From contig CAVPSX010000012.1 in NCBI GenBank assembly GCA_963708515.1, positions 409,185-473,184 on the forward strand: DNA of 64,000 nt, written 5' to 3'. Position numbers and translations under genes: made by a program. The notes under the pieces were generated by a model, which saw only the letters and a list, made by a program, of their open reading frames with translations, was not told where the DNA came from and searched no databases. Every line of letters starts with the position of its first letter. Position 1 is the first letter of the stretch. The DNA is from an uncultured delta proteobacterium (GTDB lineage Bacteria; Desulfobacterota; Syntrophia; Syntrophales; Fen-1087). This document shows positions 5,847 through 63,190 of the stretch, in pieces.

Positions 5847-6965
5847 CTACTTTACCGGAATCACCGGGGGCAAGCCAAGCGAGTCATTGACGACACGGCC
5901 TGAAAAGACAGGCCTGGCGGCGGCAATGAACTGAAATTTGTAGGCGTTCCAGGAATCATGATGGAACAGGCCGCTCGCCGGCGTCAGATCGTTCAGGGCG
6001 TCGTAGGCCAGCATGATCGCTGCTGTTGTCCAGGCGGTCTTTTCCTCCGGCCAGATCACCGTGTCAGGAAAGGTAACGCCCATCCAGTATGAACCATCGT
6101 CATATTTTTTATCGGCCAGCCAACCAAACACGATGCGGGCCTTTTCGAGTTCCCCGATCGCGGCCAGCGTCAGGACGAGCTCGGCTGTTTCCGCCATCGT
6201 CGCCCAGGGGCGGTCGGAGACGCAGCGCACCCCCCAGCCCGGCGCCACGAATTTTTCCCAGTATCGGTCAATCCGCCGGCGTGCATCCGGCCCGGTGACG
6301 GCGCCGCAGAGAATCGGGTAGTACCAGTCCATGGAAAAACGCGATTTGATCATGTTGAACAGATTCGGGCGATACCGGATGGCCTGTCCGAGTTTTTCCA
6401 ACGCCTCCTCCCAGTCGTGTCGATTGCGTCCGAGACGTGCGGCGATGGCAAGGGCGCATTTGATGCTCATGTAAACGGAACTGGAACCGGTCAAAAGGGC
6501 CATAGGGTCTACAACCCCCTCGCCGCTCCTGGCCCAGTGAATCTCCCCCGTCGGCGCCTGCATGCGAACCGCATAATCCACACCGGAGCGGACGGTGGGC
6601 CACATGCGCTTCAGAAACGCGAGGTCGTCGCTGACAAGGTAATGATGGAAGACGCCCACGGCGATATAGGAAGACATGTTGGTATCCATCGTTTTATCGA
6701 TAGGAAGGCCGTTGCGATAGGCGGCGTACCAGCTTCCGTTGGCGTGCTGGGTCTTGCGCATCCATTCGTATGCCCGCTCGGCCTCTTCCCGATAACCGGC
6801 GACAGACAACCCCATGGCGGACTCCACATGATCCCAGGGGTCGGTCTTCCCGCCGACGGACCAGGGTATCTCCCCGTTTGCTTTCTGGACGGAAACGATA
6901 AAATCCGCCATCTGTTCCATATCCACGCGGGTTTCAACGACCGCATTCGACACGTCCAGTTTCAT
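5847..6965 (-). CDS. alpha/alpha-toroid protein (prenyltransferase/squalene-oxidase-repeat-like)
   Basis: Repeated aromatic-rich W/Y helical-hairpin pattern (NGEIPW, NGSWY, DGSYW). ATG at 6965 has a GAAGGAAG RBS and sits 1 nt after the upstream stop. Function is uncertain. Confidence 0.5.
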   Translation of the reverse strand: MKLDVSNAVVETRVDMEQMADFIVSVQKANGEIPWSVGGKTDPWDHVESAMGLSVAGYREEAERAYEWMRKTQHANGSWYAAYRNGLPIDKTMDTNMSSYIAVGVFHHYLVSDDLAFLKRMWPTVRSGVDYAVRMQAPTGEIHWARSGEGVVDPMALLTGSSSVYMSIKCALAIAARLGRNRHDWEEALEKLGQAIRYRPNLFNMIKSRFSMDWYYPILCGAVTGPDARRRIDRYWEKFVAPGWGVRCVSDRPWATMAETAELVLTLAAIGELEKARIVFGWLADKKYDDGSYWMGVTFPDTVIWPEEKTAWTTAAIMLAYDALNDLTPASGLFHHDSWNAYKFQFIAAARPVFSGRVVNDSLGLPPVIPVK

Positions 6966-8941: not shown

Positions 8942-8984
8942 TTTGACAAACTCGTAAAAAATCAAAAAATTAGCCTAAAATGAC

Positions 8985-9098
8985 GGCTTCATAAAAAGCT
9001 CCGCAGGCAAGGCGCTCAAATCCTGGGGAAAGGCGTACTCAGGCATACGCCGCAATGACAAAAGATGCGGCGCAATGCAGCATCCGGACTTTTTTTAC
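8985..9098 (-). repeat. family-2 palindromic intergenic element, copy Y
   Basis: The reverse complement aligns position-for-position with 63041-63148 (GTAAAAA..GTCC..ATGCTGC.TTGCGC..CATC....GTCATTGCGGCGTA.GC...AGTACGCCT...GCGCCTTGCCT..GG.GCTTT). It has terminal inverted repeats and an A-run/T-run. Confidence 0.85.
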
Positions 9099-9751
9099 GC
9101 AGGCGTCAATATCTTCCGGATCAACGTCTCCGAATTGCCGAACATCGCCTCAATTTCCAGCGCCGCGAGGCCGGCGCCCAGGGCAACCTTCCGGGCCATT
9201 TCCAGGGAAATGAAGTCTTGAGGGCTGTGGGCGTCCGTATTGAGAACGAGTGAGGCGCCGCACTGCCTCGCCAGCATGGCCACATGTCCGTTGCTCAGGC
9301 TGTGTCCCTTGCGGGCCGTAATCTCCAGGCAGATGCCTCTTTCAGCCGCAAGCCGGACTTCCTGTTCCGTGATCAGACCGGGATGCGCCAGGATGTCGAC
9401 CGACGCTGCGATGGCGGCGGCATTGGTCCCGCTCGCCACCGGCTCCACAATCGTTTCTCCATGCACAAGCACCAGTTTCGCCCCCAGTTCTCTGGCGGCC
9501 ACGGCCAGTCCGTTGATCAGCGCCGGCGGCACATGCGTGAGCTCGATTCCCGGGATAACTTGAATATCATAAGCTTTCGACAAGCTCTGACAAACCCCGG
9601 CCACGCGGGGGATAATAAAATCCAGATTTGACGCATCACCGTGATCGGTAATGGCAATGGCCCGATAACCGGCGTGCCTGGCGCGCCGGACCAGTTCCGA
9701 CGGGATCAGTTCACCGTCGCTGAAGAGGCAGTGGGTATGCAGATCAATCAC
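9095..9751 (-). CDS. PHP-domain metal-dependent phosphoesterase
   Basis: IDLHTHCLFSDG and AITDHGD motifs. GTG at 9751 is preceded by AAGGAGG at 7 nt; the ORF track start at 9784 is a TTG without an RBS. Confidence 0.8.
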   Translation of the reverse strand: MIDLHTHCLFSDGELIPSELVRRARHAGYRAIAITDHGDASNLDFIIPRVAGVCQSLSKAYDIQVIPGIELTHVPPALINGLAVAARELGAKLVLVHGETIVEPVASGTNAAAIAASVDILAHPGLITEQEVRLAAERGICLEITARKGHSLSNGHVAMLARQCGASLVLNTDAHSPQDFISLEMARKVALGAGLAALEIEAMFGNSETLIRKILTPA

Positions 9752-20469: not shown

Positions 20470-20572
20470 CGTTGGGTCTCCTTTCATGCCGCGCAACCTT
20501 GCCATTGTTCGCCGGTTGCTGCAAGCGGAAAAATAATAAAGTCGTTGCCGAATAAGAGATATTTGCATAACC

Positions 20573-20592
20573 GGTGAAAAATGGTTCGCAAG
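20573..20592 (+). repeat. family-1 element, left-end remnant
   Basis: GGTGAAAAATGGTTCGCAAG matches the left terminus of the full copies. Similarity is lost after this point. Confidence 0.5.
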
Positions 20593-20718
20593 AGGCATGG
20601 CGCGCAGCGTGATATGGACTTGAGGAGAGTTGTTTTGCGTGATATAGGGGGCATCGTTTCTGATAAGCCAAGCTTGACGACAAAAGATAGGCCTGGTTTT
20701 AGAAAAGGAGCTCGAACG

Positions 20719-21931
20719 ATGGCGAAAATCACGCTTAAGCCATGTCCGAAAGTTTATATTCTGGAAACCCATCGCTCCAGGGCACCGGCTGATACATTGC
20801 GTTTCATCGAAGGCATGAAAGCAACACTGGGAATGAAATCCTTCCGGGATGCGACGTCCATCGATCGCATCGGCCTTCCCGTCTTTACCTGTTATCGCAT
20901 CCGGCCGGATCAATCAAAGACCTGGCATACAGGCAAGGGATTCACGGCCGTTCAGGCGCAGGTCTCGCTGACCATGGAGGCCATTGAGCGGTACTGTTCA
21001 GAATTCAGAGATGAGTACCGCGGCCGCCTGGTGCTTGACAGTTATAAAAATCTGAAGAAAAAGGGCCTCGCCGTGCTTGACCCGCACACGCTGATCCTGC
21101 CCCAGTTCAGTCAATATACGCCCGCTGATGTCTTTCACTGGGTCGGCGGGTATGACCTGATCGGCAGGGAGGAGATCATGACGCCCGCCTGCGCTGTCTA
21201 TCACCCCTTCCATCTGGACGACAAACCGTTGATCAATACCCACACGGACGGGATCGCCTCCGGAAATACGATGGAGGAGGCCGTCTTTCACGCGCTCATG
21301 GAGGTCATCGAAAGGGACGCCTGGAGCATCGCCAAATTTTCCGGCGACGCCTGCGACGCCATTGCCATTGAAGATCGCCCGGAAAATCAGTTCTTGCTGG
21401 ACATTGTCGACAAATTCAACCGGGCCAATATTGAAATCGTAGCCAAGGATATTACCTCGGACATCGGAATCCCCGTCATTGCGGCTTTTTCCCAGGATCT
21501 GGAACAGGAAAGCATGATTCCCATCGACGGTTTCGGCGCGCACCTGGATCCCAAGGTGGCCATGGCCCGCGCCCTGACGGAAATCGGCAGCGACACGCGC
21601 CCTGTTCATTCAGAAGTACGGATTCGATGGGCTCCGGGAAGACCTTCCGGCCTATTACTTCATGGACAACATGGAGGAAGACTTCCGTTTCTGCGCCCAG
21701 GCGGAAAAAGCCCTTGCAGATATGGAAGTCGGTTATTATGACGATCTGCTGAAAGACCTCGAAAAGTCGGCCGGCATCCTGCAATCCCGCAGCTATGAAC
21801 GGCTGATTGTGGTCGATCTGACGCGGCCCGATGTCGGCCTTCCCACCGTGCGCGTCATCGTGCCGGGCATGGAGGCCTTCTGTTTTGATAAAACCAGAAA
21901 GGGACCACGGTTGTTTCGCAGCCGGGACTGA
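20719..21931 (+). pseudogene. YcaO-domain protein (archaeal/short type), interrupted by a +1 frameshift at ~21586
   Basis: DRIGLPVF, TGKGFTAVQAQVSLTMEAIERY and a C-terminal ...DVGLPTVRVIVPGME. The frame changes between ...RALTEI and AATRALFIQKYGFDG.... AAAGGAG RBS before ATG 20719. Confidence 0.8.
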
Positions 21932-27013: not shown

Positions 27014-28387
27014 TCAGTCAGATTTGCGCAGCTTATACTTCATCATCTTCAACTGCAGACCCTTGCGGCTCAACCCCAACTGCTGGGCCGCGCGTGTCAC
27101 ATTATGGCCGCATTCCTCCAGTGTGGCAAGAATCATACTCTTTTCAATATCTTCCATATGTGTCTTGACAAAATCCTTGAAGGGTTTTTGTGCCGCGCCG
27201 GACGGGAGGGATAGACCTGACTCCACAGCTGTTTTCAATTCGGAAGGCAGGTCGGCAAACGCGATGGTTTCGCTGCGGGCCATCAGAACGACCCGCTCCA
27301 CGAGATTCTCAAGTTCACGGATATTGCCCGGCCATTCATACTGGATAAAAAGATTTCTGACCCGGTCATCCATGCCCTTCACCGCCCGGTCCAGCTTTTT
27401 GTTGAATTTTTCAATGAAATAATCCGTCAGCGCCGGGATATCTTCCCTGCGTTCCCTGAGCGGCGGTAAATGTGCGGGAATGACATTGAGGCGATAGAAA
27501 AGGTCTTCCCGAAAGCGGCCGTCCCGGACATCCTGGAGGAGATTCCGGTTCGTCGCCGTTACGAGGCGGACATCGACCTTGATCGTCTGCAGCCCGCCCA
27601 CGCGCTCGAACTGCTGCTCCTGAATCACGCGCAGCAGCTTGACCTGCATGTCCTTTGGGAGTTCGCCGACTTCGTCCAGAAACAGGGTCCCCTTTTGAGC
27701 CAGTTCGAATCGTCCCTGTTTTTTTGCGACGGCCCCTGTAAAGGCGCCCTTTTCATAGCCGAATAACTCGCTTTCCATGAGATTTTCCGGAATGGCTGCA
27801 CAATTGATCTTGATGAAAGGGTTGTTTCTGCGCGGGCTGTTGCGATGGATCGCGTGGGCGATGAGCTCCTTGCCGGTACCCGTCTCGCCTGTAATCAGAA
27901 CCGTGGTTGTGGTGGGGGCAACACGCTTGATGGTTTCGAAGATATCCGCCATGCGGGGGCCGGCGCCGATGATACCATAACGGTCAATGTCTTCAGGGTC
28001 GAGCAGCGCTTCGTCTTCATTGAGCCGGCGTGTCCTGATGGCCTTCTCGATGACATTTTTCAGATCTTCCTGTTCAAAGGGCTTTGAGATGTAATCAAAA
28101 GCTCCCTTTTTCAAGGCGTCCACGGCAGTTGCTACGGTTCCATGGGCCGTAATGATAATGACCGGTACAGATGGATACTCCCGGATCATACGGTCCAGAA
28201 GCCCCAGACCGTCCAGGTTCGGCATTTTCAGATCCGTCACGACGACGTCGACGGGACCGGTCTTCAGTATTTTCATCGCTTCCAGGCCGTCGGAGGCTGC
28301 CGCAACCTCATAGCCCTCCTTTTTCAGCATGGCCTGCAGGACGAGCCGCATATTCAGTTCGTCGTCAACGATCAGAATGATATTCAA
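27014..28387 (-). CDS. sigma-54-dependent response regulator (NtrC family)
   Basis: Receiver domain (ILIVDDE...VVVTDLKMP), AAA+ domain with GETGTGKE and the GAFTGA loop (EKGAFTGAV), and a C-terminal Fis-type HTH. Likely TTG start at 28387 after GGAGGGGAG. Confidence 0.9.
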   Translation of the reverse strand: MNIILIVDDELNMRLVLQAMLKKEGYEVAAASDGLEAMKILKTGPVDVVVTDLKMPNLDGLGLLDRMIREYPSVPVIIITAHGTVATAVDALKKGAFDYISKPFEQEDLKNVIEKAIRTRRLNEDEALLDPEDIDRYGIIGAGPRMADIFETIKRVAPTTTTVLITGETGTGKELIAHAIHRNSPRRNNPFIKINCAAIPENLMESELFGYEKGAFTGAVAKKQGRFELAQKGTLFLDEVGELPKDMQVKLLRVIQEQQFERVGGLQTIKVDVRLVTATNRNLLQDVRDGRFREDLFYRLNVIPAHLPPLRERREDIPALTDYFIEKFNKKLDRAVKGMDDRVRNLFIQYEWPGNIRELENLVERVVLMARSETIAFADLPSELKTAVESGLSLPSGAAQKPFKDFVKTHMEDIEKSMILATLEECGHNVTRAAQQLGLSRKGLQLKMMKYKLRKSD

Positions 28388-28495
28388 CGGGGTCTCCCCT
28401 CCCCTTCCTCTGCACGCAACCAAATCTTCAAAAATGGCTGGGCTTCATTTTGGCGTGAATCGTACCGGAAAAGTCCCTTTCCTGCAAGACCATCT

Positions 28496-28685
28496 GAGGG
28501 CTTTGCCTGACCGCTGAAAAATGGTTCGCAAGCAACGAATGAAAGATTTTTCGTTGATGGGGACACGACTCCGTCAAGCCCCCTCCCCATGACTCATTTA
28601 TTGATTTCAAGCATGTTTATGCCTTAACATATTTCAAGCGAAATAGATTGTGAGCCGCGGGCGTTGTCCATTTTTCCAAGGTCTC
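28496..28685 (+). repeat. family-1 palindromic intergenic element, copy A
   Basis: Shares the left arm CTGAAAAATGGTTCGCAAG..GAATGAAAGATTTTTCG, the centre TTTATTGATTTCAA and the right arm GCGAAA.AGATTGTGAGCCGCGGGCG..CCATTTTTCCAAGGTCTC with copies B-D. It has an extra internal GC hairpin (ATGGGGA...CTCCCCAT). Confidence 0.85.
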
Positions 28686-28694
28686 CATCTGTCT

Positions 28695-30248
28695 TTATTC
28701 ATGGGCTACATCCAGACGGATATAGAAAATGCTCCCCTGGCCGGGGATGGATTTCACGCGCAGCCGCCCCCCGTGGCTCTTGACAATGCGCTGGCAGATG
28801 GGCAGTCCCAGACCCACGCCTCTTTCTTTCGTGGTAAAAAAAGGTTTAAAAATATTCTTAATGTCTTCCCGCTTGATGCCCTTTCCCGTATCCCGGATGG
28901 AGAGGCCCACCGCGGCACCGGCGTCTCCGGCAATCCGCGATGTCCGAAATGTCAGGGTCCCGCCTTCGGGCATGCCTTCCATCGCATTATAGGCGAGGTT
29001 TAGGATAACCTGCACCATCTGTTCCGCGTCTATATTGACCGGGGGCAGATCCGGATGGAGATCCTGTTCAATGGCCATGTTTTCAGGGAGACTGCTGGCC
29101 CGGATGATCGATATCGTTTTTTCAACCAGAGGGTTGAGCCATTGAGTTTTTCGATTCAGCTGATAGGGCTTCGCATAGTTCAGAAATTGTGAAACCACGC
29201 TGTTCAGGCGATCGACCTCCTCGATGATGACATCAAGAAGTCTCTGGTGTTCCTCATCTTTTTCTTCGGAGCGCAGAACCTGCGCCGCGCCTTTCATGGA
29301 ACCCAGGGGGTTGCGGATTTCATGAGCCAGGACAGGCGCCATCTCCTCCAGCAGCCGGCTTTTTTCCCGCTCCAACCTCTCATCCAGCGCGTACAGGGAC
29401 GTAAAGACATCGGGGCTGTCCGGGTAGATCATGGTCAGGATTTTTTTCAGAATCTGCCGGAAGGGCTCGATGGAAATGACGATGATAAAGGAAGCCACCA
29501 GAATATGACTGAAGGGCGCCGCGGCCTTTCCAAACAGCCCCGTGAAGATCGTGAAGATGATCGCCGCAAAGCAGGTCATGATGAAAACAACCATGGCGCG
29601 GGCCATGATGTCGTGGAGCGCCGTCAATTGCGGGGTGGTGATAGTCATGAGGATCAGGTAAATCAGGGCTGCCAGGATAATGTCTGCGTGCAGGGAAAAT
29701 CCATAAGCCACCCCGGCCAGACGCTCCAGCCCCATGAGCAAAGCCGTGATGGCGAAGGCAATGGCCAGGTAGCGCATCCGTTTTTTTTCGGCGCCTGCGG
29801 CCTTCGCCTTCAGGTAGACGATCAAGGCCAGATAGCAGATCACGAACAGGATCGCGACATAGGCCCTCAAGAGCAGGGGAAGATTGGGCTGGACGCCGCC
29901 AAGGGGGAATCCCGTATGGAAGACGACATAAGAAACGACGGCCATGGCAATACTGATAACAGATGCAAGCGCGATATGGCGTTCGGATAAAAAAGTCTGC
30001 TGATTGAGCAGGGTACGCGTAAAGGCGATGGCAAGCGGCGGGAGGGCCAGCAGGCCCAAGGTTTCCGCCATTTTCAGAAAATCATGCAGGAGAAGACCGC
30101 CAAAGAAATTCGCCCCTTTACAGACAAACAGCGCCAGACAGAGCCAGGCAAAACTCAGATGCGCCGGCGTCTTGTTTTTGCTGATCATTAATGAAACGGC
30201 GATGGTCAGACTGACCGCCGCCAGGGTCAATGATTCCATGATTTGCAT
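28695..30248 (-). CDS. sensor histidine kinase with multi-TM N-terminal domain
   Basis: About 7 hydrophobic segments, then the H-box LAHEIRNPLGS and N/G1/G2 boxes (NLAYNAMEG, DTGKGI, GVGLGL). Confidence 0.85.
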   Translation of the reverse strand: MQIMESLTLAAVSLTIAVSLMISKNKTPAHLSFAWLCLALFVCKGANFFGGLLLHDFLKMAETLGLLALPPLAIAFTRTLLNQQTFLSERHIALASVISIAMAVVSYVVFHTGFPLGGVQPNLPLLLRAYVAILFVICYLALIVYLKAKAAGAEKKRMRYLAIAFAITALLMGLERLAGVAYGFSLHADIILAALIYLILMTITTPQLTALHDIMARAMVVFIMTCFAAIIFTIFTGLFGKAAAPFSHILVASFIIVISIEPFRQILKKILTMIYPDSPDVFTSLYALDERLEREKSRLLEEMAPVLAHEIRNPLGSMKGAAQVLRSEEKDEEHQRLLDVIIEEVDRLNSVVSQFLNYAKPYQLNRKTQWLNPLVEKTISIIRASSLPENMAIEQDLHPDLPPVNIDAEQMVQVILNLAYNAMEGMPEGGTLTFRTSRIAGDAGAAVGLSIRDTGKGIKREDIKNIFKPFFTTKERGVGLGLPICQRIVKSHGGRLRVKSIPGQGSIFYIRLDVAHE

Positions 30249-33887: not shown

Positions 33888-33912
33888 AATCGATGCTCAG
33901 CCGGATTATTCA

Positions 33913-34066
33913 AGATCTTGGAAAAATGGTTCGCAAGCGGTGAATGAAAGATTTTTCGCAGTTCCATTAATTTGACTAATTTATTGATTTCGGACATTTT
34001 TTAAGCAACATCTTATTTCATGCGAAAAAGATTTTGAACCGCGGCGAAGCCATTTTTCAAAGATCT
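33913..34066 (+). repeat. family-1 palindromic intergenic element, copy B (best-preserved)
   Basis: Terminal inverted repeat AGATCTTGGAAAAATGG / CCATTTTTCAAAGATCT. The arms GGTTCGCAAGCGGTGAATGAAAGATTTTTCGC and GCGAAAAAGATTTTGAACCGCGGCGAAGCC are imperfectly complementary. Confidence 0.9.
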
Positions 34067-34069
34067 CTT

Positions 34070-38331: not shown

Positions 38332-38725
38332 CGCTTTTTGATAGGTTGATCAACACCCGTGAAAAAAGGCTTCGTCCAAGCCTCAACCATGTTGAATGGC
38401 ATACCGTTAACGTCGCCTTTGGAAAGGTAGAAAATATTTGCATCGCCGCTTGCGAGCGCTTTTCTTCGGTTATGCAAAACCGTCAATGATCATGGCGCGG
38501 ATTCTCGACGATTACACGTGATTTGTCAAACAAATATCAAAGGCGTCTTTGACAGGCGTATTGCCATACACTCCCGCCCAGAGGATAAGCAATTTACTCT
38601 CATAAATATCAAATTATAGCTGCCTTCACTCCCGCAACAAAACATGCATGTATTTTTAACCAAATACACATTTTTCAAAGGGTATTCGGCAAACAAATAT
38701 ATTGACAAAACAGAAAGATTGTTTC

Positions 38726-46421: not shown

Positions 46422-46588
46422 GAGAGCTTTGCATGACCGCTGATAAATGGTTCGCACGCGGCGAATCAAAGATTTTTCGACTTTCCAGGAATAAGACTAA
46501 TTCACCGATTTCAACAGGATTTAGACCTTATCCTAATTTCTTGCGAAAAAGATTTTGAGCCGCGGTGAAGCCATTGATCAGCAATCTC
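46422..46588 (+). repeat. family-1 palindromic intergenic element, copy C
   Basis: GAGAGCTTTGCATGACCGCTGATAAATGGTTCGCACGCGGCGAATCAAAGATTTTTCG ... GACTAATTCACCGATTTCAA ... GCGAAAAAGATTTTGAGCCGCGGTGAAGCCATTGATCAGCAATCTC. Confidence 0.85.
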
Positions 46589-49600: not shown

Positions 49601-49982
49601 CGGGCAGGACTCCTTCGGGAGCCTCCTGATCGGCCGTGATCAGGGGTGGGCGTATCTACCCGTCACAAATGCCGCAGCCGTTCTGCAGCAGCTATTAACA
49701 CTGTATTGGAAGGGATTGTCTGTGCCGCTCAAGTTCTTTCCGGACGCTTCATGGACATACGCGGAGCAGAGGCTTGAAAACGGAAAGACAATAACCGAGG
49801 CCTTGCGTATGGCACGGCCGCTCTGGACGGGCTCCGACTACAGACGCGGCGAATCGAAAGATCGTTACTACCGACGCTGTTTCGGGGAACAGGATCCCCT
49901 CGACGAGGAATTCGAGCAACTGTCGGTGCTGGTTTATGAACCGTTGATGAAACACAGAACGAGTGCTTTGCATGGCCGCTGA
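46693..49982 (+). pseudogene. recC: exodeoxyribonuclease V gamma subunit (RecC), N-terminus displaced by a frameshift in a C5 run (46778-46782)
   Basis: MAVFKRYAGNRLGLLADRLAECIRTPLSSP (frame 1) followed by LAPEIIIVQSKGMERWLSMELARRHGICANIRLPFP (frame 0) reconstitutes the canonical RecC N-terminus. One extra C would restore the frame. Confidence 0.85.
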
Positions 49983-49985
49983 AAA

Positions 49986-52900
49986 ATGACTCCCTTTGAT
50001 CTTCTAAAGAGCCCGTTGCAGGGCACCCATCTCATCGAGGCCGGCGCCGGCACGGGAAAAACCTATGCCATCGCCGGTCTCTACATCCGCCTCATCCTCG
50101 AAAGGGCAATTCCGGTGAGGGAGATTCTTGTGGTCACTTTCACCCTGGCGGCCACGGCCGAGCTGAAAGACCGCATCCGCCGCAAGCTCCGGGACACCCT
50201 CGATGCATTTTTGCAGGAGGACAGCAAAGATGCTTTTCTACAGGCGCTCATCCGTACCTTCCCGCATCCCGCTCTGCGAAAAGAGGCCTGCGAGCGCCTT
50301 CGCGCCGCTCTCCGGGATTTCGATGAAGCCGCCATCTTCACCATTCACGGCTTTTGCCGGCGTATGCTCCACGAACATGCCTTTGAAAGCGGAGCCCTTT
50401 TTGACACCGAACTTGTGCCGGATCAGCGCCGGTTGAAAGAAGAAATTGTCCGGGATTTCTGGCGGACGCATTTCTACGGGACCCTGCCCGAACTCATCGG
50501 ATATGCCATGAGTCAGGGCTTCACGCCCGCTTCATTGGTCAGGCAGGTGGAGAATATCGCCTTGAATCCCGATATCCGTGTCCTGCCCGAAGGCGAACCT
50601 ACTTCCATCGACATCATCCGGAAGTCCCTCGCTGCTTTCTACGCGATGGTTGCGGAATTGCAGGCCATCTGGACGTCGGTACGGGAAGAGGTCCGTCAAA
50701 AGCTTCAGGATCCGGCCCTCAAAGCCAATATTTACGGCCCGAAGACGGCAAACCGTCTCGTAGACGCCATGGATGAGTGGCTGGCCGCGAGAGAATTCCA
50801 GCCCTTCATGGATTTTGAGAAAATGACCCCTGAGAGGATCGCAAAAGCCGTCCGGAAAAACACAAACCCTCCGGAACATCCGGTATTCGCGATCTGCCAA
50901 GCGCTTCTGGAGAAAGCCGACGATCTGCGCCGGGAGCTGGATCAATATTTGCTTTTTTTAAAAACCGCTCTCATCAGGATGCTCAGGACTGAACTGCCTG
51001 CCCGCAAGCAGAAACAGAACATTCTGTTTTATGACGACCTGCTCGTCAGGTTGAGAGACGCGCTCGAAAAAGAGGGAGGCGGCGCACTCGCAACCGTGAT
51101 TGGCAATCAATTCAAAGCCGCCCTGATCGACGAATTCCAAGATACCGATCCAATTCAGTATGCTATTTTTCATACCGTTTTCGGCGGGGAAGACCACACC
51201 CTTTTTCTGATCGGCGATCCCAAACAGGCCATTTACAGCTTCCGCGGCGCCGATATTTTTGCCTATATGCAGGCGGCAGGCGACGTCGGGACGGGCCATA
51301 CCCTCGATCGGAACTGGCGGTCGGAACCGGGCCTCATTGAGGCTGTCAATGCCCTGTTTTCCAGGCCCGGCAACCCCTTCGTGTACGGGGATATTTCCTT
51401 TCGTCCTGCAGAAGCCGCCCCGATGGTCGGGCGCAAGATTCTAACTATCGACGGGAAACAGCCTTCCCCCCTGGAATGGTGGTTCATCCCGGCCGTCTTG
51501 TTCACGCAATCAGACAAACCCCTGCCAAAAGAGACAGCCCGGCGATTCATCGCCGACGCCGTAGCGGCGGAAATATCGCATCTCATTCGCCTGGGGCGCG
51601 AGCATCGCGCCATGATCGGACAAAGTCCGCTTGATGAGAGCGATATGGCCGTGCTGGTGCGCACGAATCGGGAAGCCGGGCTGATCCAGCGGGCCTTGCA
51701 GAACCTCCGGATTCCCAGCGTCCTTACCAGCGAGGAAAACGTCTTCGATTCCCATGAAGCAGGCGAACTCCTGCAGGTATTGCAGGGAATTGCATGGCCC
51801 GCCCGTGAAAATCTCGTACGCGGCGCTCTGGCGACGGACATGCTGGGCGCGGGCCCAGGCGCCCTTGATCAATGGCTGCACGACGACGACGGCTGGTCGG
51901 CCCGTCTGGAAACATTCAGACAGGATCACGAATTATGGAAAACACGGGGCTTCATGCGGATGTTCCGGACCCTGACCCTCAGAGAGGGCGTGCGGAGCCG
52001 TCTGCTGTCCTTTCCGGACGGCGAACGCCGCCTGACAAACCTTCTGCATCTAACAGAGATCCTCCATGAGGAATCCCAATCCCGGAACCTGGACAATGAC
52101 CGGCTGTTGCAGTGGCTGGCGGAGCAACTGTCCGGCAAGGGGCGGGAAGACCGGGACGAGCACCTCCTGCGCCTGGAAAGCGACTCCCGCGCGGTGAAGA
52201 TCCTGACCATCCACAAGAGCAAGGGACTCGAGTACCCGGTTGTCTTCTGTCCATTTGCCTGGGGATCGTCGCGCATTGCCAGAGGACCTTTTTATTTTCA
52301 TGATGAAAGCCGCAATCGGGAGTTGACGCTCGAACTCGGGCCTGCGAACCAGAGCGCGCACAAGCTCTCAGCGGAAAGGGAACGGCTGGCCGAAAACTGC
52401 CGTCTTCTCTATGTGGCGCTGACGCGGGCGAAACACCGCTGTTATTTCCTGTGGGGACACATCAATGAAACGGGCAGTTCCGCACCGGCCTATCTCTTCC
52501 ACGGGGCGAAAGCGGATATCCATCCAGACTGCGGGGAAGGTACCGTTGACGTCCTGGAAAAACACGTGGGAGCAATGTCGGATCAGGACATGCACAGCGA
52601 TTTGGAGCGTATCACGGCAGACAGCGGCGGAACGATCCGGTTGCGGGAGCTTCCCAAAACGCCGGGCATCCCCGTGCCGCCGCGCGTGGACGCTTTCGAA
52701 GTAATCGCCTGCCGGACATTCAAGGGACGTATTGATCCATCCTGGAAAGTGGCCAGCTATTCGCTGCTTGTTTCCAGCCCCTCCACACTGATGGACCTGC
52801 CGGACCGGGATGCGGCTTTGTCTCCGGCGCCATCATATTCACCCAACCTTCATACCCCTTCTCCTGCCTTCCCCGGGCGGGAGGACAGGACGGAAGGGGA

Positions 52901-56562: not shown

Positions 56563-56718
56563 GAGACCTCTGAACAATGGGCCACGCCGGCAATTAAATA
56601 ATTTTTCGCTGAGCCGAATATCACACCTCAATCATGACGGATTTCAAACTTTCAAGTTTATCTCTGAAGAGGTAAAATACTTGATTTGCCGCTTACGTAC
56701 CATTTTTCAGCGGGTCTG
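56563..56718 (+). repeat. family-1 palindromic intergenic element, copy D (degenerate)
   Basis: GAGACCTCTGAACAATGGGCCACGCCGGCAATTAAATAATTTTTCG ... GACGGATTTCAAAC ... TTGATTTGCCGCTTACGTACCATTTTTCAGCGGGTCTG aligns with copies A-C. Confidence 0.7.
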
Positions 56719-56958
56719 TTGATCTTGGAGTTACTGTATATATCTGGCCCATTTTTTTAGCGGCGTCAAGCTTTTTCAAGGCGTCCCTTCGCCCGCCTTG
56801 CCGGTTTTGGGCTTTCTTCCTTGCCCCCTGTTTTATATTGTATTTTTCTTTAATCTCTGCAAGATTCTCCCAGAACCTGATGCAACTCCTGCCGGAACCG
56901 CTTCGGTCGCTTGGGATGCAGGCTAAATTATGATCACGAAAGGGACTGGACCAACCGC

Positions 56959-61034: not shown

Positions 61035-61808
61035 CTATTTCTGCCCGCGTTTCTTCATCTGTTCGATAAAAATAAATTCATTCATGTGCGCTTTGCGTTC
61101 AGGCTTTGAAAAAAGCAGGCTGGATATGGCGAGTTCCATGTCCAGCGCCGAGCCTGGATCGAGTTGAGGCGTCATGAAGGATATTTTCTTAACGGCCTCG
61201 ACGGCATTCGCCGACCGCCTGGACAATTCTTCCGCCATGATCATCGCCTCTTTCATAAATGTTTCCGGCGGAGCGACTTTGTTCACCAGGCCGATCCGGA
61301 GGGCTTCCTTCGCTCCCAACGGCTCGCCAAGCATGGTGATTTCCTTCGCCTTGGCCAACCCGACAATCTGCCGCAAAGGATTGAAAAGCGGGTTCAACCC
61401 GAATTTCAGCTCCGGGTGTCCGAAAATAGCCGATTCTGAGGCAATAATCAGGTCGCAGACGATCGCAAGATTAAAACCGCCGCCCAGGGCGATGCCCCCT
61501 ACCGCCGCAATGACGGGTTTCCGGCAGGTATAGATGCGCTTCAGGTAACCGACTATGGATTTAAAGAAATCGTCCGTGTCACGGTCCGGCATGGCGGCCA
61601 TTTCCTTGATATCTATCCCTGCCGAAAAGACATAATCGCCTCCCGTAAGAATAATGGCCCTGACGTCCGTAGCTTCTTCAAGCCTGATAAAGCAGTCCTC
61701 AAGTTCATCACGCATGGCCCGGGACAGGGCGTTCATTTCGTTGGGACGGTTCAGGGTGACAATGGCGTAGCCTGTTTTCTTCTCAAGCAAAATGGTCTTT
61801 GTATTCAT
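61035..61808 (-). CDS. enoyl-CoA hydratase (crotonase)
   Basis: ILTGGDYVFSAGIDIKE and PVIAAVGGIALGGGFNLAIVCDLIIA motifs. Confidence 0.9.
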   Translation of the reverse strand: MNTKTILLEKKTGYAIVTLNRPNEMNALSRAMRDELEDCFIRLEEATDVRAIILTGGDYVFSAGIDIKEMAAMPDRDTDDFFKSIVGYLKRIYTCRKPVIAAVGGIALGGGFNLAIVCDLIIASESAIFGHPELKFGLNPLFNPLRQIVGLAKAKEITMLGEPLGAKEALRIGLVNKVAPPETFMKEAMIMAEELSRRSANAVEAVKKISFMTPQLDPGSALDMELAISSLLFSKPERKAHMNEFIFIEQMKKRGQK

Positions 61809-62089
61809 TCCGGTGCATTTATCCTTTTCTTAATATCCTTCCCCACCCTGAAGAAAGGCGAACGCCGCGTCTCAACATGAATCGAGGCGCCGCTTCTGGG
61901 ATTTCTCGCCTTACGGGCATGATGGCGCCGAACGGTAAAGCTGCCGAATCCGCGCACATCGATCCGCTCATCCTTCTTCAGCGCCTCCGTCATGGCTGCA
62001 AAGATAATGTTCACCGCAAGAGCCACATCTTTTGACGGAAAATCCTTCACTCGGCGTTGCACCATCCGAATCAGATCTTTTTTCGTCAT
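61805..62089 (-). CDS. ihfB: integration host factor beta subunit / HU-family DNA-binding protein
   Basis: MTKKDLI..., a GFGSFTVRRHHARKARNPRSG arm, 94 aa, and the conserved rpsA-proximal position. Confidence 0.85.
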   Translation of the reverse strand: MTKKDLIRMVQRRVKDFPSKDVALAVNIIFAAMTEALKKDERIDVRGFGSFTVRRHHARKARNPRSGASIHVETRRSPFFRVGKDIKKRINAPE

Positions 62090-62999: not shown

Positions 63000-63040
63000 G
63001 ATAGAATGTTAATCCAAACGGGATTAACTCTGACGACTTC

Positions 63041-63190
63041 GTAAAAAGTCCATATGCTGCGTTGCGCTTCATCCATCGTCATTGCGGCGTACGCAAAAGT
63101 ACGCCTCATTCCTCATGATTCGCGCGCCTTGCCTCTGGCGCTTTGTTACGCAGCCGTCCCAGATTCAAGACTTTGCTGTTTTTTCGCAGC
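63041..63190 (+). repeat. family-2 palindromic intergenic element, copy X
   Basis: Aligns with the reverse complement of 8985-9098. Contains an internal perfect hairpin GGCGTAC-GCAAAA-GTACGCC, the outer pairing GCTGCGT/ACGCAGC and a partially duplicated 3' end followed by TTTTTT. Confidence 0.85.

Follow-up and report, generated by a model that had tools for sequence, protein, structure and literature searches.

A repeated sequence element of 166-167 nt, or 183-190 nt when it carries an additional internal hairpin, was analysed in a stretch of 64,000 nucleotides from an uncultured member of the Syntrophales (contig CAVPSX010000012.1 of assembly GCA_963708515.1; this whole stretch is called the window, and positions are counted from its first letter). 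One copy of the repeat, copy A, lies between the genes for a histidine kinase (HK) and a sigma-54-dependent response regulator (RR). The repeat very probably constitutes a MITE family (MITE, miniature inverted-repeat transposable element), i.e., non-coding, non-autonomous DNA transposons. This reading is preferred because the copies possess terminal inverted repeats and are bracketed by a target-site duplication of 5 bp, because relatives display a precise empty site, and because dispersed copies occur in 12 genomes, where they form lineage-specific subfamilies and include the products of an apparent recent burst. The element is shorter than about 500 bp and has no transposase open reading frame (ORF), its duplication is of fixed length, and its dispersed copies differ by presence and absence between genomes; structurally, the element has all that is expected of a prokaryotic MITE apart from an autonomous partner, which was not found in the window or in 1.25 Mb of related DNA. 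An original prediction, made from the letters of the window, had considered a MITE/REP-like family or a structured non-coding RNA (ncRNA), and the MITE part of this proposal is strongly supported here.

Architecture of the element family

Copies from other genomes were retrieved through exact matches to a left-arm pattern of 22 nt, in a scan of one genome per species. Among the 77 full copies obtained outside the window, lengths range from 160 to 206 nt and 60 copies measure 166-167 nt, the hairpin-bearing ones reaching 183-190 nt by means of an internal GC hairpin module. Full copies terminate in long imperfect inverted repeats (GAGAGCTTTGCATAACCGSTGAAAAATGGTTCGC... / ...GCGAAGCCATTTTTCAAAGGTCTC), as had been predicted for the arms; in the alignment, the end sequences are GAGAGCTTTG.../...CAAAGGTCTC and the whole unit can be written as GAGAGCTTTGCATAACCGSTGAAAAATGGTTCGCAAGCGGCGAATCAAA...[variable centre]...GCGAAAAAGATTTTGAGCCGCGGCGAAGCCATTTTTCAAAGGTCTC. 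The left end has the layout GAGAGCTTTG-CATAACCGSTG-AAAAATGGTTCGC, and the right end, read in reverse complement, repeats the left end except for the 11-nt block CATAACCGSTG, which it lacks. The end repeats are about 40-60 nt long, with a short form of about 38 nt, and in a few copies (L041, L023, L026) the long form is present on the right or on both sides. The arms enclose an AT-rich, subfamily-specific centre, of which at least four types were distinguished that are in part genome-specific. In the alignment of 72 copies, the arm helices are paired in 87-96% of cells, and the coding capacity of the element is limited to short, variable ORFs.

The repetition in the window exceeds what its composition would give. 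The 22-nt left-arm pattern (AAATGGTTCGCAMGCRRYGAAT) has three exact matches there and a fourth with three mismatches, compared with 0.01 occurrences expected from window shuffles, and the centre motif occurs four times with 0.04 expected. The same families were recovered by a repeat finder (D1-D3, D5 and D16 and the inverted pairs I2 and I4).

In addition to full copies, a decay series of solo ends, arm-to-arm mini-elements and copies with internal deletions was detected, as is typical of MITEs. Solo left ends in L014, L018, L022, L028, L045, L047, L054 and L069 all stop at model position ~60-63, the boundary between arm and centre, and this common stop in many independent cases would fit a palindrome-centred deletion. 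The centre is missing from mini-elements of about 55-90 nt, in which the left arm is fused to the right end; these are located at L017:7440-7510, L038:33-119, L058:797-880 and L109:2884-2934. The terminal 16 nt of the family recur in other small elements whose interiors are different (L047:2790-2925; L014:4842-4860 and 6489-6530), and one of these elements with GAGA(G/C)CTTTGCATAAC ends is nested against a truncated copy of the present family. Because these other elements have the same termini, an enzyme recognising GAGA(G/C)CTTTGCATAAC would seem to exist, or to have existed recently, in these lineages.

Target-site duplication and empty sites

The two 5-nt flanks are identical in 29 of the 77 full copies and match in at least four of five positions in 47. 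Mean flank identity reaches 70% at length 5, compared with 24-32% at lengths of 3, 4, 6, 7 and 8 nt, and when the right flank was moved by 1-3 nt as a control, only 0-2 of the 77 copies retained exact identity, a range that also covers the controls at other lengths. The duplicated pentamers have no fixed sequence and are AT-rich, with 32% GC against a genome background of 55% GC. Copy A itself is flanked by the duplicated pentamer CATCT, and the outermost ends proposed for this copy are its true termini.

Response-regulator orthologues were fetched from metagenomes and profiled, and the site of copy A was compared across them. The site is filled in L102, whose regulator is 100% identical and which represents the window's own genome, and in L103 (95% regulator identity), where a 166-nt copy (L103:1767-1932) occupies the same position. 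It is empty in L104 and L105 (94% and 93% identity, respectively), in L106 and L107 (both 91%), in L111 (80%) and in L112 (78%). At 86% identity, L108 has a remnant at this site and L109 a remnant elsewhere in the same spacer. From the comparison of filled sites (...GACAGATG[element]AGATGGTCTTGCAGG) with empty ones (...GACAGACGGTCTTGCACG), in which the pentamer is present once, it is evident that the empty site is precise. Both checks envisaged in the original prediction, for duplications and for empty sites, therefore gave a positive outcome. A second, near-empty site was found when the L051 copy was compared with L076.

Distribution and apparent recent activity of the family

The copies are not restricted to the window. 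The left-arm pattern was found in more than 101 stretches of 8 kb which, among the matches listed, all come from 12 metagenome-assembled genomes (MAGs) of the Syntrophales type. These MAGs are labelled Syntrophus, Syntrophaceae, Syntrophales or 'delta proteobacterium', and one is labelled Acidobacteriota, which may be a binning error. Altogether, 155 full or partial copies, mostly solitary, were counted in about 0.77 Mb, that is, in the pattern-fetched stretches plus the window. Three family patterns gave no match in viral contigs, and a blastn search with the consensus against 72,556 plasmids yielded chance matches only.

In MAG CAZNDG01, 19 pairs of copies at different loci are at least 97% and up to 99.4% identical. 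At least seven copies (L019, L021, L035, L055, L070, L081, L090) belong to this 97-99.4% group, and most of those listed have exact 5-bp duplications, which indicates a recent transposition burst in this Syntrophus MAG. Insertions are also kept at orthologous sites across species-level genomes (L002/L056/L091, L045/L074, L059/L080 and L068/L079), and because several copies are shared in this way the family appears to be old as well as recently active. Relative to the flanking genes, copies lie in the same orientation between tandem genes in 28 cases and in the opposite orientation in 27, while 19 are located between divergent and 19 between convergent genes. Orientation relative to genes is random and no gene arrangement is enriched.

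Copies in the window

For the census of the window, an nhmmer profile was built from the 77 copies of other genomes, and five copies and two remnants were obtained (Table 1). Copies A, B and C, retrieved with this outside-copy profile at E = 1e-35 to 5e-39, share the left arm, centre and right arm as proposed. Four copies had been listed originally, and all of them are genuine; a fifth, truncated copy and the remnant at the recC/recB junction had been missed. The centres of all four had been read in plus polarity, which was a misreading in the case of copy D: its left-arm pattern matches the minus strand only (compare the inverted repeats I2 and I4) and no plus-strand profile match exists. As stated in the original prediction, all full copies are located between ORFs.

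Table 1. Positions of the copies of the element, their parts and the adjoining genes in the window
Feature	Position	Strand	Evidence or remark
Copy A, complete element, 190 nt, hairpin-bearing subfamily	28496-28685	+	nhmmer, model positions 1-167, E = 1.5e-35
Copy A, left target-site duplication CATCT	28491-28495		same pentamer on both sides; single in relatives with the empty site
Copy A, right target-site duplication CATCT	28686-28690		same pentamer on both sides; single in relatives with the empty site
Copy A, GC-rich hairpin module GGGGACACGACTCCGTCAAGCCCCC	28559-28583	+	fits GGGGACAYGAC..GTCRTGTCCCC
Histidine kinase gene	28695-30248	-	Pfam HisKA, HATPase_c
Sigma-54-dependent response regulator gene	27014-28423	-	Pfam Response_reg, Sigma54_activat, HTH_8
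Promoter-like motif TTGCAG-N17-TACGAT for the regulator	28459-28487	-	hexamers kept, spacer variable in orthologues 78-94% identical
Copy B, near-complete element	33912-34067	+	nhmmer 33917-34067, model positions 17-167, E = 2e-36
Copy C, complete, right terminus decayed, divergent region upstream of recC	46422-46588	+	nhmmer 46422-46581, model positions 1-160, E = 5e-39
Copy D, diverged, left terminus decayed, opposite to copies A-C	56563-56725	-	nhmmer 56563-56717, model positions 12-167, E = 1.4e-18
Fifth copy, right-truncated	38378-38484	-	nhmmer, model positions 5-108, E = 7.7e-15
Left-end remnant, 41 nt, upstream of YcaO-like gene	20556-20596	+	nhmmer 20557-20596, E = 4e-9
Left-terminus-like remnant, 29 nt, recC/recB junction	49961-49989	+	24-nt pattern with 1 mismatch, 0.00 expected; nhmmer E = 0.0014

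The copies other than A are older, being diverged, truncated or cut to terminal stubs. At the left end of copy B, the terminal repeat is present in its short form (AAGATCTTGGAAAAATGG). The fifth copy has a centre like that of the CCAGAGA..GTTAACGG subfamily and lies in a long intergenic region between an HlyD-like gene and fusA. A left-end remnant had been placed at 20573-20592; it is real and extends over 41 rather than 20 nt. It is orthologous to a full copy (L053:4857-5022) on a Syntrophaceae MAG contig that is 87-90% identical to the window over 6 kb, and the window is without 153 nt of that region. The similarity to this contig assigns the source of the window to the same group as the MAGs that carry the family. 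At the recC/recB junction, the final 8 codons of recC and its TGA lie in the stub (GAGTGCTTTGCATGGCCGCTGAAAAATGA), which also provides the recB ATG 3 nt later; this junction may have been reshaped by an old insertion.

The ATG within the left-end remnant (20581) opens an ORF of 386 amino acids that was considered as a possible transposase and rejected, as Pfam assigns it to a YcaO-family gene. This gene occupies 20581-21931 and is apparently split: the ORF at 20581-21741 matches the first 231 of 325 Pfam profile positions only, and a second ORF lies in another frame (21662-21931), which could reflect a frameshift, a pseudogene or a sequencing error. The window also contains a second, unrelated repeat of about 125 nt at 8980-9107 (plus strand) and 63030-63150 (minus strand). 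Its two copies are about 80% identical and in inverted orientation, have inverted ends of their own (GACGGCTTCATAAAAAG... / ...CTTTTTTTACGCAGGCGTC), and probably represent another MITE-like family.

Copy A at the kinase-regulator junction

Matches of regulator orthologues start at query residues 9-16 of the longest ORF, and a ribosome-binding site (GGAGGGGAG) precedes a TTG at 28387, which is probably the true start of the regulator gene. Because translation would begin at this TTG, on the evidence of both the orthologue matches and the ribosome-binding site, the spacer between kinase and regulator measures about 307 nt. The element plus one copy of the duplication accounts for 195 nt of it, leaving an ancestral spacer of about 112 nt. 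Copy A is located 4 nt past the stop codon of the kinase gene; on its other side, a -35-like hexamer of the regulator follows 3 nt downstream. In this place it interrupts neither of the two genes nor the core promoter-like motif.

The promoter-like motif (Table 1) scores just below the threshold of a simple promoter scan. In orthologues, L104-L113 included, it takes the form CTTGCA(G/C)-N17-TA(C/G)(G/C)AT and stands between kinase stop and regulator start. We infer that this motif is the regulator gene's own sigma-70-type promoter, which suggests that the regulator gene may not be strictly co-transcribed with the kinase gene. The position of the conserved motif just downstream of the insertion suggests that the site can tolerate copy A. 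The same scan detected no strong promoter within copies A-C; one weak inward-facing match is present in copy B.

Copy A would not be an integral regulatory part of this locus, because relatives at 91-94% identity are without it. In the simplest reading it may be regarded as a recent, tolerated insertion rather than a built-in regulatory component, and any effect on transcription or read-through would be secondary and putative.

Internal modules of the element

The additional GC hairpin that had been attributed to copy A is indeed present; it is not unique to this copy and marks a subfamily in other genomes. The module lies inside family copies in L001, L087, L091, L095 and L101, on either side of the centre, and these five are the loci among those matching the module for which family membership was checked individually. 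Orthologous copies differ with respect to the hairpin, as copy A possesses it and L103:1767-1932 does not, and L091:1144-1327 differs in the same respect from L056:3501-3667. In these two independent orthologous pairs the presence of the hairpin corresponds to the replacement of the same 15-18 nt by about 35 nt, with identical boundaries, suggesting conversion between copies or a nested (mini-)insertion.

The left arm includes a short hairpin (TGGTTCGC-AAGCG-GCGAATCA) flanked by an A-run and a T-run, which a simple scan flagged as terminator-like on both strands; it is short, and its T-run begins 3-4 nt after the stem. Of the 72 copies, 17 share an exact consensus for integration host factor (IHF; WATCAANNNNTTR) at one fixed place in the centre, compared with 0.6 expected from shuffles. 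All but one of the 17 have a centre of the copy-B type, and as the copies are related by descent these counts are not independent. In copy B the consensus is located at 33974-33991 (AATCAATAAATTA on the minus strand), and 16 other aligned copies have it likewise. The motif is a lead and a predicted site only. A gene of the HU/IHF family is present at 61805-62089 of the window.

Proposed mechanism of spread and alternative explanations

In the proposed mechanism, a transposase encoded elsewhere would bind both ends of the element, cut AT-rich intergenic DNA with a stagger of 5 bp and place the element there; the 5-bp duplication would arise from the subsequent repair. Copy A would be one such insertion, by which an ancestral spacer of about 112 nt became 195 nt longer, and a read-through transcript over copy A would carry a long hairpin.

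Several observations weigh against reading the family as MITEs, most of them concerning the transposase. As the original prediction had stated, no transposase is nearby: a search with Pfam found a transposase domain in none of 50 ORFs scanned in the window. Family ends 0.6-5 kb apart with a matching duplication, as an autonomous relative would have, were not encountered in 1.25 Mb of related DNA; the long- or short-form end pairs at such distances that were considered as candidates all proved to be individual MITEs whose flanks showed no matching duplication. Nothing credible came from a general search for inverted repeats bracketed by duplications, and self-BLAST of all loci revealed no long within-genome repeats, only orthologous regions between genomes. 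The ORFs at 15 solo ends are of housekeeping type by the look of their N-terminal sequences, none being transposase-like, and those of L014 look glycosyltransferase-like, again with none resembling a transposase. To our knowledge, ends starting with GAG in combination with a 5-bp duplication fit no standard insertion sequence (IS) family in the ISfinder tables. For copies B, C and D no target-site duplication is recognisable by eye, and the mobility of these three copies is inferred from family membership. Finally, retrieval by an exact 22-mer makes the invariance of alignment columns 24-45 an ascertainment effect.

Duplications of 5 bp are made by Tn3, the IS2 group, IS1380, IS1634, ISH3 and a few others. 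In none of these do the ends typically start with GAG, and the element was accordingly not assigned to a transposase family. The family and the other elements sharing its ends might have been moved by a transposase outside the catalogued IS families, none of which is known to combine GAG ends, end repeats of about 40-60 nt and a 5-bp duplication. Alternatively, the host might have domesticated a subset of copies which, next to promoters such as that at the HK-RR junction, would serve in either orientation as terminators, insulators or IHF-binding modules. This two-sided proposal we regard as doubtful. A derivation from the Tn3 family, i.e., a Tn3-derived inverted-repeat miniature element (TIME) mobilised by a Tn3-type TnpA, is unlikely. 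A 5-bp duplication in AT-rich targets together with long end repeats is a hallmark of the Tn3 family, and both the AT-rich pentamers and the unusually long end repeats, with their short form of about 38 nt, would agree with such an origin. However, the ends start with GAGAG or GAGAC and no TAAG is visible, whereas the consensus of the Tn3 type has a GGGG start and an inner TAAG. Moreover, no Tn3-type transposase or resolvase was seen in the window or the related sequences examined, and the plasmids, which are rich in Tn3-family ends, gave chance matches only.

The arms could also be viewed as the functional stem of a structured ncRNA or of a cis-regulatory RNA, copy A then serving to process, attenuate or stabilise the HK-RR transcript. 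Single copies do fold into a long hairpin that beats shuffled sequences (copy A, z = -2.9; copy B, z = -4.8), the small hairpin of the left arm is followed by its T-run, and one column pair of the alignment (59/132) switches from U-A to C-G in 15 sequences. These z-scores do not discriminate, however, as any inverted repeat folds well when single-stranded, and the sole compensatory pair is a subfamily marker that may stem from a single event. For the 72 copies, RNAalifold gave a weak consensus fold of -11.5 kcal/mol to which covariation contributes -0.17, central helices pair in just 53-62% of cells, and when the arm pairing was imposed, 81.2% of cells paired compared with 80.5% after partners had been shuffled among sequences. 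The arms pair through conserved sequence, not covariation. No Rfam match at the gathering score was obtained across the window, copy A giving only noise at E <= 10 (E = 6.4), gene orientation is random (28 versus 27), and close relatives function without copy A. The ncRNA alternative put forward in the original prediction, with no Rfam match, a covariation of about zero and no orientation bias, is not supported and is very unlikely. The REP half of that prediction was contradicted by the target-site duplication. REPs (repetitive extragenic palindromic sequences) are 20-40 nt long, lack target-site duplications and are usually clustered. Copies of the present family are intergenic, palindromic and numerous, as would be expected of REPs or BIMEs (bacterial interspersed mosaic elements) spread by a RAYT (REP-associated tyrosine, Y1) transposase, and also of a family of regulator binding sites. 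Their unit of about 167 nt, 5-bp duplication, precise empty sites and mostly solitary copies do not agree with REPs, and families of binding sites make no duplications, nor do they appear or vanish as exact blocks of 172 or 195 nt, which leaves a negligible probability for either explanation. A reading of the arms as sigma-54 promoter or enhancer sites was dropped after inspection by eye, as the spacing does not fit.

It is rather unlikely that, within a MITE family, the host has taken some copies into service, copy A among them, whether to terminate or insulate transcription in both directions, to act as sites for RNase III or mRNA stability, or to form IHF-bound architectural elements by promoters. 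Such roles are documented for Correia elements and other MITEs (PMC10969869), and the A-tract, stem and T-tract at the arm base, the over-represented IHF consensus with the HU/IHF-family gene in the window, and the retention of insertions at orthologous sites would all be compatible with them. However, no gene arrangement or orientation is enriched, the terminator-like hairpin is short with its T-run set off from the stem, the copies with the IHF motif share descent and are not independent events, and neutral inheritance would likewise leave copies shared at orthologous sites. A family of MITEs, with copy A as a tolerated insertion, is the reading that we retain.

Significance and comparison with known systems

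The type of element is ordinary, and for this family, its end sequences or MITEs of Syntrophus no published description was found in the searchable literature. Members of the Syntrophales, for the most part known from MAGs, have a key role in the syntrophic degradation of fatty acids and aromatic compounds. With about one repeat per 10-13 kb, as in the window, the family would be expected to break short-read assemblies and to confuse binning. It also presents a risk for annotation: spurious short ORFs start at its conserved ATG, and a single stub provides both the stop of recC and the start of recB. The presence or absence of copies can serve as a marker for strain typing and for the dating of lineages, and near-identical copies in one MAG suggest that the transposition system is active or was so recently. 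For the kinase-regulator pair, a purpose-built regulatory RNA is no longer needed to account for the long spacer, which would result from a recent insertion beside the apparent regulator promoter.

Similar to the Correia (nemis) elements of Neisseria, which are about 100-200 bp long and present in hundreds of intergenic copies, the element is small and has terminal inverted repeats; Correia elements also have a central IHF site in some subtypes, give rise to long-hairpin transcripts and have no identified autonomous partner (PMC10969869). Correia elements have proven functions as promoters and in connection with IHF and RNase III, whereas such functions are only predicted for the element described here. 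The sequences are unrelated: a TA dinucleotide is duplicated and the end repeats are of 26 bp in Correia elements, whereas here 5 bp without a fixed sequence are duplicated and the end repeats extend over about 40-60 nt. With TIMEs, the element has in common the 5-bp duplication, AT-rich targets, long end repeats that reach about 38 nt or more, and the non-coding nature. Its ends are GAGAG/GAGAC and not GGGG, and any membership among TIMEs would be putative.

SPRITE, RUP and BOX of Streptococcus pneumoniae and ERIC of enterobacteria are likewise small, intergenic palindromic repeats with modular and nested organisation (PMC10969869). Some of these repeats (SPRITE) carry terminator-like hairpins; for the present element there are only hints of such a function, and all these families differ from it in host, sequence and duplication signature.

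A likeness that extends to the lineage is that to Chunjie, a MITE of Geobacter uraniireducens Rf4 (Chen et al. 2008, summarised in PMC10969869), an anaerobe of a related lineage formerly placed in the Deltaproteobacteria. Chunjie is about 180-235 bp long with conserved terminal repeats and direct repeats, to which the element here is comparable, and it occurs as dozens of full and many partial copies in intergenic DNA, as here (PMC10969869). One Chunjie copy is located inside an operon without destroying it (PMC10969869), and copy A between kinase and regulator is comparable to that case, the two being likened by description and not by sequence, with the difference that copy A lies upstream of what appears to be the downstream gene's own promoter.

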